DNA of 64,000 nt, from assembly GCF_003334305.1 (NCBI RefSeq), contig NZ_QOWS01000004.1, one strand, 5' to 3'. A program made the position numbers and the translations under genes. Source of the stretch: Escherichia coli. Lineage in GTDB: Bacteria; Pseudomonadota; Gammaproteobacteria; Enterobacterales; Enterobacteriaceae. The first letter of the stretch is position 1. Each line of letters opens with the position of its first letter. The notes below the pieces were generated by a model. The model was not told where the DNA came from, did no database searches, and saw nothing but the letters and a program-made list of their open reading frames with translations. Positions 33,691 to 34,497 of this stretch are shown piece by piece.

Positions 33691-33875
33691 ATTTCTCTGA
33701 GATGTTCGCAAGCGGGCCAGTCCCCTGAGCCGATATTTCATACCACAAGAATGTGGCGCTCCGCGGTTGGTGAGCATGCTCGGTCCGTCCGAGAAGCCTT
33801 AAAACTGCGACGACACATTCACCTTGAACCAAGGGTTCAAGGGTTACAGCCTGCGGCGGCATCTCGGAGATTCCC
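33691..33875 (+). ncRNA. ssrS: 6S RNA (RNA polymerase sigma-70 holoenzyme-binding regulatory RNA)
   Basis: Starts ATTTCTCTGAGATGTTCGCAAGCGGGCCAG and ends ...GGCATCTCGGAGATTCCCT, matching the 184-nt E. coli 6S RNA from memory. It sits between zapA and ygfA as expected. Ends are approximate. Confidence 0.9.
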
Positions 33876-33948
33876 TTCTTATCTGGCACCAGCCATGACG
33901 CAACTACCAGAACTCCCACTGACATTATCCCGACAAGAAATCCGCAAA

Positions 33949-34497
33949 ATGATTCGGCAACGTCGTCGTGCGTTAACGCCGGAACAACAGCAGGAAATGG
34001 GTCAACAAGCCGCTACCCGGATGATGACTTATCCCCCGGTGGTGATGGCGCATACGGTCGCTGTATTCCTCTCTTTTGATGGTGAACTCGACACCCAGCC
34101 GCTAATAGAACAACTCTGGCGCGCCGGTAAGCGCGTATATCTTCCAGTTTTGCATCCCTTTAGTGCCGGTAATTTGCTGTTCCTGAATTACCATCCGCAA
34201 AGCGAACTGGTGATGAACAGGTTGAAGATCCATGAGCCAAAACTGGATGTGCGTGACGTGCTACCCCTTTCCCGATTAGACGTGCTGATCACACCGCTGG
34301 TCGCCTTTGATGAGTACGGTCAGCGCCTGGGAATGGGCGGTGGTTTTTATGATCGGACCTTACAAAACTGGCAGCACTATAAAACGCAACCGGTGGGTTA
34401 TGCGCATGATTGTCAGTTGGTGGAAAAACTCCCCGTTGAAGAGTGGGATATCCCTCTTCCTGCGGTGGTTACACCGTCGAAAGTCTGGGAGTGGTAA
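33949..34497 (+). CDS. ygfA: 5-formyltetrahydrofolate cyclo-ligase family protein
   Basis: ORF 33751..34497 runs through the 6S gene; the biologically sensible start is MIRQRRRALTPEQ at 33949 (182 aa). Confidence 0.85.
   Translation: MIRQRRRALTPEQQQEMGQQAATRMMTYPPVVMAHTVAVFLSFDGELDTQPLIEQLWRAGKRVYLPVLHPFSAGNLLFLNYHPQSELVMNRLKIHEPKLDVRDVLPLSRLDVLITPLVAFDEYGQRLGMGGGFYDRTLQNWQHYKTQPVGYAHDCQLVEKLPVEEWDIPLPAVVTPSKVWEW

Follow-up and report, generated by a model that had tools for sequence, protein, structure and literature searches.

A conserved upstream ATG is the probable start of fau (ygfA) in the classical zapA-ssrS-fau locus of Escherichia coli

The gene fau (ygfA) of Escherichia coli very probably starts at the ATG at position 33895 of the 64,000-nt stretch of DNA analysed here (the window), within the classical ssrS-fau unit: The encoded protein of 200 aa then begins with MTQLPELPLTLSRQEIRK, followed by the MIRQ residues at which a shorter form of 182 aa would start. 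The spacer between 6S RNA and ygfA is probably 20 nt long rather than about 70 nt. This longer form is already known, since it is present both in the PGAP annotation and in a ribosome profiling paper from 2016; it is the K-12 reference and UniProt that differ. The region as such, zapA-ssrS-ygfA(fau), belongs to the textbook knowledge on E. coli, and there is nothing new in the locus itself. The correction of the start codon is the sole actionable result of our work, the confirmation of 6S RNA being a matter of correct annotation only. The features of the locus are listed in Table 1.

Table 1. Features of the zapA-ssrS-fau region and their positions in the window
Feature	Position	Strand	Basis or remark
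zapA, cell division protein ZapA, 109 aa	33320..33649	+	ORF; NCBIfam NF008209; also annotated as zapA in RefSeq genomes of E. coli
Candidate distal ssrS promoter P2, TTGCAA - 17 nt - TAGAGT, inside zapA	33431..33459	+	Explicit pattern
Candidate proximal ssrS promoter P1, ATGACA - 18 nt - TG-TAGAGT, extended -10	33646..33675	+	sigma70 consensus scan, 9/12 matches
ssrS, mature 6S RNA, 184 nt	33691..33874	+	RF00013; PGAP ncRNA ssrS at identical bases
Spurious 48-codon 5' extension of the 248-aa mechanical ORF; non-coding 3' part of 6S and leader	33751..33894	+	ORF list, cross-genus frames
C-rich, G-poor tract (6S 3' tail, 20-nt leader, first ygfA codons); candidate Rho-utilisation region	33865..33944	+	Composition
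20-nt leader from the 6S 3' end to the ygfA start, pyrimidine-rich, no Shine-Dalgarno sequence	33875..33894	+	CTTCTTATCTGGCACCAGCC
fau (ygfA), 5-formyltetrahydrofolate cyclo-ligase, 200 aa, best-supported extent	33895..34497	+	PGAP WP_000192748.1, exact bases
Internal ATG, Met19, 'MIRQ'	33949..33951	+	Start in K-12 MG1655 fau (b2912) and UniProt; gives 182 aa

Results

Locus and 6S RNA

The region from about 33300 to 34520 matches several E. coli chromosomes with 100% identity, and it occurs in one copy in each of 5,426 complete E. coli genomes. ZapA matches the NCBIfam equivalog NF008209 over its entire length (residues 1-109 of 109) with 221.8 bits at a cut-off of 96. Downstream of zapA, an Rfam scan of the whole window identified 6S RNA (RF00013) at 33691-33874 on the plus strand with 139.8 bits versus a gathering score of 46.4 (E = 2.2e-28), and the match extends over the complete covariance model (positions 1-187 of 187). 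This full-length match bears out an earlier note on this DNA that had placed 6S RNA between zapA and ygfA: The start at 33691 is exact, and the spacer between the zapA stop codon and the RNA was re-counted as the 41 nt that had been given there.

The 184 nt of the RNA are 100% identical to ssrS (b2911) of E. coli K-12, which has the same neighbours, zapA upstream and fau downstream, the same fold, and the same pRNA template at U44. The RNA itself is thus without any difference, and only the annotated length differs: At the 3' end of ssrS (window 33874, K-12 3056165), the K-12 annotation with 183 nt and PGAP as well as Rfam with 184 nt disagree by one base.

The earlier note had made its identification dependent on a fold that resembles an open promoter, and such a fold was found. 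The 184-nt RNA has a minimum free energy of -80.5 kcal/mol, with a z-score of -5.62 relative to dinucleotide shuffles. Moreover, the RNAalifold consensus of 12 species contains 47 pairs, 15 of them with compensatory double changes. The 12 aligned sequences come from Escherichia, Salmonella, Citrobacter, Klebsiella, Kosakonia, Lelliottia, Trabulsiella and four Pasteurellaceae, and each of them is an independent match to RF00013 with 124-141 bits. The consensus fold has the architecture of an open-promoter mimic: Besides a closing stem and an internal stem, it contains a large internal loop in the centre (alignment columns 42-58 and 133-145) and a terminal stem-loop. The RNA of the window shows every defining feature of RF00013 that can be tested.

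Nucleotide 44 of the RNA is a U, which we take to be the start point of the pRNA, and the complement of positions 44 to 29, which make up the template, gives the pRNA 5'-AUCGGCUCAGGGGACU. The pRNA start at U44 of E. coli 6S RNA reportedly goes back to work by Wassarman and Saecker from 2006. Since the sequence is identical to that of K-12 ssrS, the known properties of E. coli 6S RNA apply here as well: The E. coli RNA sequesters the sigma70 holoenzyme, and the release is triggered by pRNA (PMC10578484; PMC12152304; for the pRNA-dependent release of 6S RNA, PMC10578484). For the RNA of the window, both the binding to sigma70-RNA polymerase and the accumulation in stationary phase would follow only from its identity with the characterised E. 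coli RNA.

In 66 of 68 loci that range from Escherichia to the Pasteurellaceae, 6S RNA immediately precedes the orthologue of ygfA, as judged by blastn and, for the Pasteurellaceae, by Rfam; in this count, one locus (L049) is cut off by the contig end. For Colwellia demingiae (L062, 1-2000), the 2-kb flank in front of the fau orthologue gave no 6S RNA at the Rfam gathering score, which may be due to a loss of synteny or to too great a divergence of the RNA. In three Klebsiella-like loci (L032 1899-2000, L036 1876-2000, L049 55-153), the 3' end of 6S RNA and the fau ATG are 99-125 nt apart, whereas 14-24 nt are usual, and therefore an insertion parts 6S and fau in these loci.

Start of fau in orthologous loci

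The frame upstream of the conserved domain was inspected in 68 orthologous loci from a species-representative genome collection. The start motifs were counted in the window and 67 of these loci (n = 68), the Colwellia locus L062 having dropped out. In all 68 sequences, the MIRQ position is preceded by an in-frame ATG at a distance of 16-18 codons, and this ATG is mostly found 14-24 nt past the 3' end of 6S RNA. The codon equivalent to that of the MIRQ methionine is ATG in 15 of the 68 sequences, kept by Escherichia, Salmonella and some Citrobacter, and a non-start codon in the other 53, among them CTG, TTA, CTA, CTC, CTT, GTT, ATC, ATA and ATT, but also CAC, CAG, CAA, ACT, ACC, TTC, TTT, TAC and CAT; GTG or TTG were never seen. 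Therefore, the upstream ATG is the only usable start codon in most genera.

A coding signature is visible in fau codons 2-16, as revealed by a codon-level analysis of 56 ungapped enterobacterial sequences. All of them have ATG as codon 1. Thr2 is conserved in 55 of 56 with four synonymous codons in use, and the arginine equivalent to E. coli R13 is present in 56 of 56, encoded by five synonymous codons that include CGA/AGA exchanges. R17 is likewise conserved in all 56 sequences. For codons 10-16, the entropy at the three codon positions is 0.51, 0.13 and 1.14, respectively, and this is the same three-base periodicity as in the downstream, undisputed part of the coding sequence (0.48, 0.34 and 1.42). 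This pattern of variation indicates that the codons between the two ATGs are under protein-level selection.

Upstream of the conserved ATG, the ygfA frame runs back into 6S RNA in three different frames in other genera, and the distance between 6S RNA and the fau ATG varies by non-multiples of three (14 and 17-24 nt across genera). For these reasons, the first 48 codons of the 248-aa mechanical ORF (33751-34497), which covers the 3' two-thirds of 6S RNA, are non-coding; that this ORF runs spuriously across the RNA gene had already been recognised in the earlier note. An antisense ORF of 108 aa (33599-33925) was also rejected, it lies over the structured RNA gene and its frame is not conserved. 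In Enterobacter sp. EA-1 (L066 2001-2378), the fau frame that begins with the conserved ATG has just 126 codons, and the identity falls to 58%, which probably reflects a frameshift, a pseudogene or an assembly error.

Protein models and structure

Fau scores above the curated profile cut-offs of the 5-formyltetrahydrofolate cyclo-ligase (5-FCL) family and has the MTHFS fold. The two forms of the protein differ in how well they fit these models: The 200-aa form reaches 447.1 bits with NF007661 (cut-off 343) and 180.6 bits with TIGR02727 (cut-off 84.9), as compared to 426.0 and 172.3 bits for the 182-aa form, which thus loses 21 and 8 bits, respectively, but passes both NCBIfam cut-offs. Positions 1-182 of TIGR02727 correspond to residues 13-194 of the 200-aa protein, and the model is fully covered in the long form only; the MIRQ form begins at model position 8, so that positions 1-7 are lost. 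Similarly, PF01812 aligns with its positions 1-186 to residues 13-194 of the long form (163.2 bits, E = 8.2e-48).

An AlphaFold model of the 200-aa protein, built on the ortholog alignment, has a pLDDT of 82.1 and a pTM of 0.81. In this model, helix alpha1 comprises residues 13-25, and only residues 1-8 are disordered. A Foldseek search of the PDB with the model returned exclusively 5-FCL/MTHFS proteins among the top 12 matches, all with a probability of 1.00. The fold is shared with the solved enzymes 2JCB (B. anthracis), 1YDM (B. subtilis YqgN), 1SOU (A. aeolicus) and 3HXT (human), each with a Foldseek probability of 1.00 and with TM values of 0.66-0.73. These four homologues are 21-30% identical to Fau; their alignments start at residues 12-14 and end at residues 191-197, and all four have an arginine at the position of R17. 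Unlike the solved 5-FCLs, enterobacterial Fau has an extra tail of about 11 residues in front of helix alpha1 that is poorly conserved and predicted to be disordered.

Among 34 orthologues with identities down to about 50%, R13 and R17 are invariant, Q14 is almost invariant, and position 19 varies. In human MTHFS, the equivalents of R13 and R17, K10 and R14, probably contact the phosphates of ATP. According to the structural model, a start at MIRQ would halve helix alpha1 and remove the invariant residues R13 and R17. Only the 200-aa form has the complete 5-FCL domain, to which the N-terminal helix and its conserved basic residues belong. An E. coli ygfA deletant builds up 5-formyl-THF and is unable to use glycine as its only source of nitrogen (PMC3223725). 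The assignment of Fau as the ATP-dependent enzyme that converts 5-formyl-THF to 5,10-methenyl-THF is based on the family assignments and on this phenotype.

Annotations and ribosome profiling

The annotated ygfA starts fall into two groups: K-12 MG1655 (NP_417387.3) and UniProt (5FCL_ECOLI) have the protein of 182 aa with the MIRQ start, whereas PGAP has the start at 33895, 20 nt after ssrS, in all three sampled E. coli genomes. The K-12 protein (UniProt P0AC28) is identical to the 182 C-terminal residues of the protein studied here, and the PGAP protein WP_000192748.1 is identical to its 200-aa form, the two starts being 18 codons apart. The earlier note had advised to trim ygfA to MIRQ and had left about 70 nt between 6S RNA and the gene. 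The arithmetic is right for the MIRQ ATG at 33949, which is found 74 nt past the 3' end of 6S RNA, and the advice agrees with K-12 and UniProt; however, conservation, protein models and ribosome profiling favour the ATG at 33895, which is only 20 nt away.

By tetracycline-inhibited ribosome profiling (TetRP), Nakahigashi et al. 2016 mapped the initiation of ygfA to -54 (PMC4909307). In their Table S2 (row 100), ygfA is given a new ATG at -54 with the manual verdict '1. new site' and not 'multiple', and their Table S5 includes the 200-aa ygfA product (PMC4909307). The TetRP depth at the upstream ATG was 150.5, 4.68 and 0.62, versus 0, 1.75 and 0.33 at the MIRQ site (PMC4909307); one of the three replicates dominates the signal at -54. 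Fragments of the 6S precursor could contaminate the TetRP footprints, as the site is only 20 nt away from a stable RNA of extreme abundance. Neither form of Fau is represented by an N-terminal peptide in the data of Nakahigashi et al. 2016 (PMC4909307), and the supplements of the TRAINSPOTTER N-terminomics study have no entry for ygfA, fau or P0AC28.

Promoters and leader

The start of the proximal promoter candidate, 7 nt downstream of the -10 element, is at -9 relative to mature 6S RNA, presumably the position of ssrS P1. The distal candidate inside zapA would have its start at -225 if the same distance of 7 nt from the -10 hexamer is assumed; this candidate is a weak match, with 8 of 12 consensus positions and thus below the threshold of the sigma70 scan. 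Kim and Lee are said to have located the P2 start at -224 in 2004, and the positions agree with the P1 and P2 candidates. The two promoters P1 and P2 and the maturation of 6S RNA by RNase E/G and exonucleases are described in the literature (PMC12152304). The co-transcription of ssrS and ygfA is documented (PMC2848244; PMC3299989), in line with the earlier note, in which the dicistronic unit was taken as known. Moreover, Rho-dependent termination of ssrS transcripts within ygfA is reported, with reference to Chae et al. 2011 (PMC3299989).

The composition of the DNA downstream of 6S RNA points to a site where Rho may load: The difference between C and G per 30-nt window is +5 to +9 over 33865-33944 and drops to -2 to +1 over 33935-34024, and the first 90 nt past 6S RNA (33875-33964) contain 30 C versus 14 G. 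From this, we infer that the C-rich tract is a Rho loading (rut) site. Pyrimidines make up 14 of the 20 nt of the leader. A Shine-Dalgarno sequence was not found at either candidate fau ATG by anti-SD duplex energy, which is -1.5 kcal/mol for the ATG at 33895 and -0.7 kcal/mol for the MIRQ ATG, as compared to -7.8 for zapA, -5.8 for serA and a random mean of -2.1. Most orthologous leaders in front of the fau ATG are pyrimidine-rich, with a similar CCTTCT...ACC pattern recurring across genera.

Discussion

The choice between the two start codons is the question that matters for the interpretation of this locus. That ygfA starts only at the MIRQ ATG at 33949, the preceding 54 nt being an untranslated leader, is very unlikely in our view, even though this is the start in K-12 MG1655 (NP_417387.3) and in UniProt 5FCL_ECOLI and the 182-aa form scores above both NCBIfam cut-offs (426 and 172.3 bits). 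The presence of an ATG at this position in Escherichia, Salmonella and some Citrobacter would fit such a start, as would the lack of a Shine-Dalgarno sequence at 33895 (-1.5 kcal/mol); however, the MIRQ ATG lacks one as well (-0.7 kcal/mol), and 53 of the 68 sequences have a non-start codon there and only the upstream ATG available. Moreover, the protein-level selection seen in the upstream codons speaks against a leader, the family models begin 6 residues upstream of MIRQ, and the protein would miss R13, R17 and half of helix alpha1. Finally, the TetRP initiation signal at MIRQ is almost nil. It is still unlikely, if somewhat less so, that both ATGs are used in Escherichia, giving rise to proteoforms of 200 and 182 aa after the internal ATG had arisen in this lineage: Codon 19 is ATG in Salmonella and in every Escherichia locus examined, other genes with dual starts were described by Nakahigashi et al. 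(PMC4909307), and the low TetRP depth at the MIRQ site is nonzero in two replicates. Yet the manual verdict for ygfA was 'new site' and not 'multiple', the truncated protein would be devoid of the two invariant arginines, and methionine is just one of several hydrophobic residues (L, I, V, M, F) tolerated at this position of the helix.

A start even further upstream, with the 248-aa ORF (33751-34497) as a real protein overlapping the 6S gene, is improbable in the extreme. The ORF is uninterrupted and has an ATG, and one public assembly (P0017) carries a gene call of 248 aa; but in other genera the part before 33895 falls into three frames and is interrupted by stop codons, and the spacing between 6S RNA and the ATG varies by non-multiples of three. 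Moreover, this upstream stretch is covered by no family model, and its conservation is accounted for by RNA base pairing.

With fau starting at 33895, the ssrS-fau transcript is very probably organised as follows. 6S RNA folds into an extended hairpin whose large central bubble imitates an open promoter; it sequesters sigma70-RNA polymerase in stationary phase and is released once the polymerase has copied a short product RNA, the pRNA, from U44. Transcription starts at two tandem ssrS promoters, one in the zapA-ssrS spacer and one within zapA. The majority of the transcripts end in a Rho-dependent manner shortly inside ygfA and are then trimmed to the mature 3' end of 6S RNA, and a minority is read through and acts as the mRNA of ygfA. 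Translation does not include the 48 codons by which the 248-aa ORF precedes 33895. Weak initiation 20 nt from the end of 6S RNA, at a site devoid of a Shine-Dalgarno sequence, may allow Rho to terminate most transcripts and may thus keep ygfA expression low.

It is tempting to speculate, and we do so only tentatively since we regard it as a possible but rather doubtful idea, that the leader and the C-rich first codons of ygfA form a conserved switch on which the loading of ribosomes, the loading of Rho and 3' exonucleolytic trimming compete. If this were true, each transcript would become either mature 6S RNA or ygfA mRNA, and folate repair would be tied to the growth-phase programme of 6S RNA. 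Such a geometry becomes apparent only with the corrected start: If fau starts at 33895, Rho-dependent termination 'within ygfA' falls in translated sequence rather than in a leader, whereas a start at MIRQ puts the Rho sites in an untranslated leader. In other dual-function units made up of a stable RNA and an mRNA, promoters are likewise shared, and the 3' end of the RNA is made by termination or cleavage in the downstream unit and subsequent trimming; ssrS-fau is unlike these units in that the coding sequence begins 20 nt past the end of the mature RNA and has no Shine-Dalgarno sequence.

The position of the start codon has practical consequences. Trimming to MIRQ, as in the K-12 and UniProt records, probably drops 18 real N-terminal codons of Fau, and this matters whenever the 182-aa protein is cloned, expressed or modelled. 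Similarly, ssrS deletions and 3'-end constructs that assume about 70 nt of non-coding spacer are affected if the spacer has only about 20 nt.

Two further observations concern other parts of the window. Directly downstream of fau, the DNA at 34498-35190 is a tandem duplication with a unit of about 300 nt and copies that are 88.7% identical. Each copy contains a SIB antitoxin RNA (RF00113) on the plus strand (34523-34673 and 34915-35065, 137 and 134 bits, respectively) and, antisense to it, an ORF for an Ibs toxin of 19 aa on the minus strand (34598-34657 and 34990-35049). In E. coli K-12 MG1655, just one such copy, sibC/ibsC, is found between fau and serA, as compared to the two SIB/Ibs copies here. 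Finally, Rfam revealed a match to the small RNA ES036 (CssrF) at 48136-48178 on the plus strand, with 47.3 bits versus a gathering score of 37.6.
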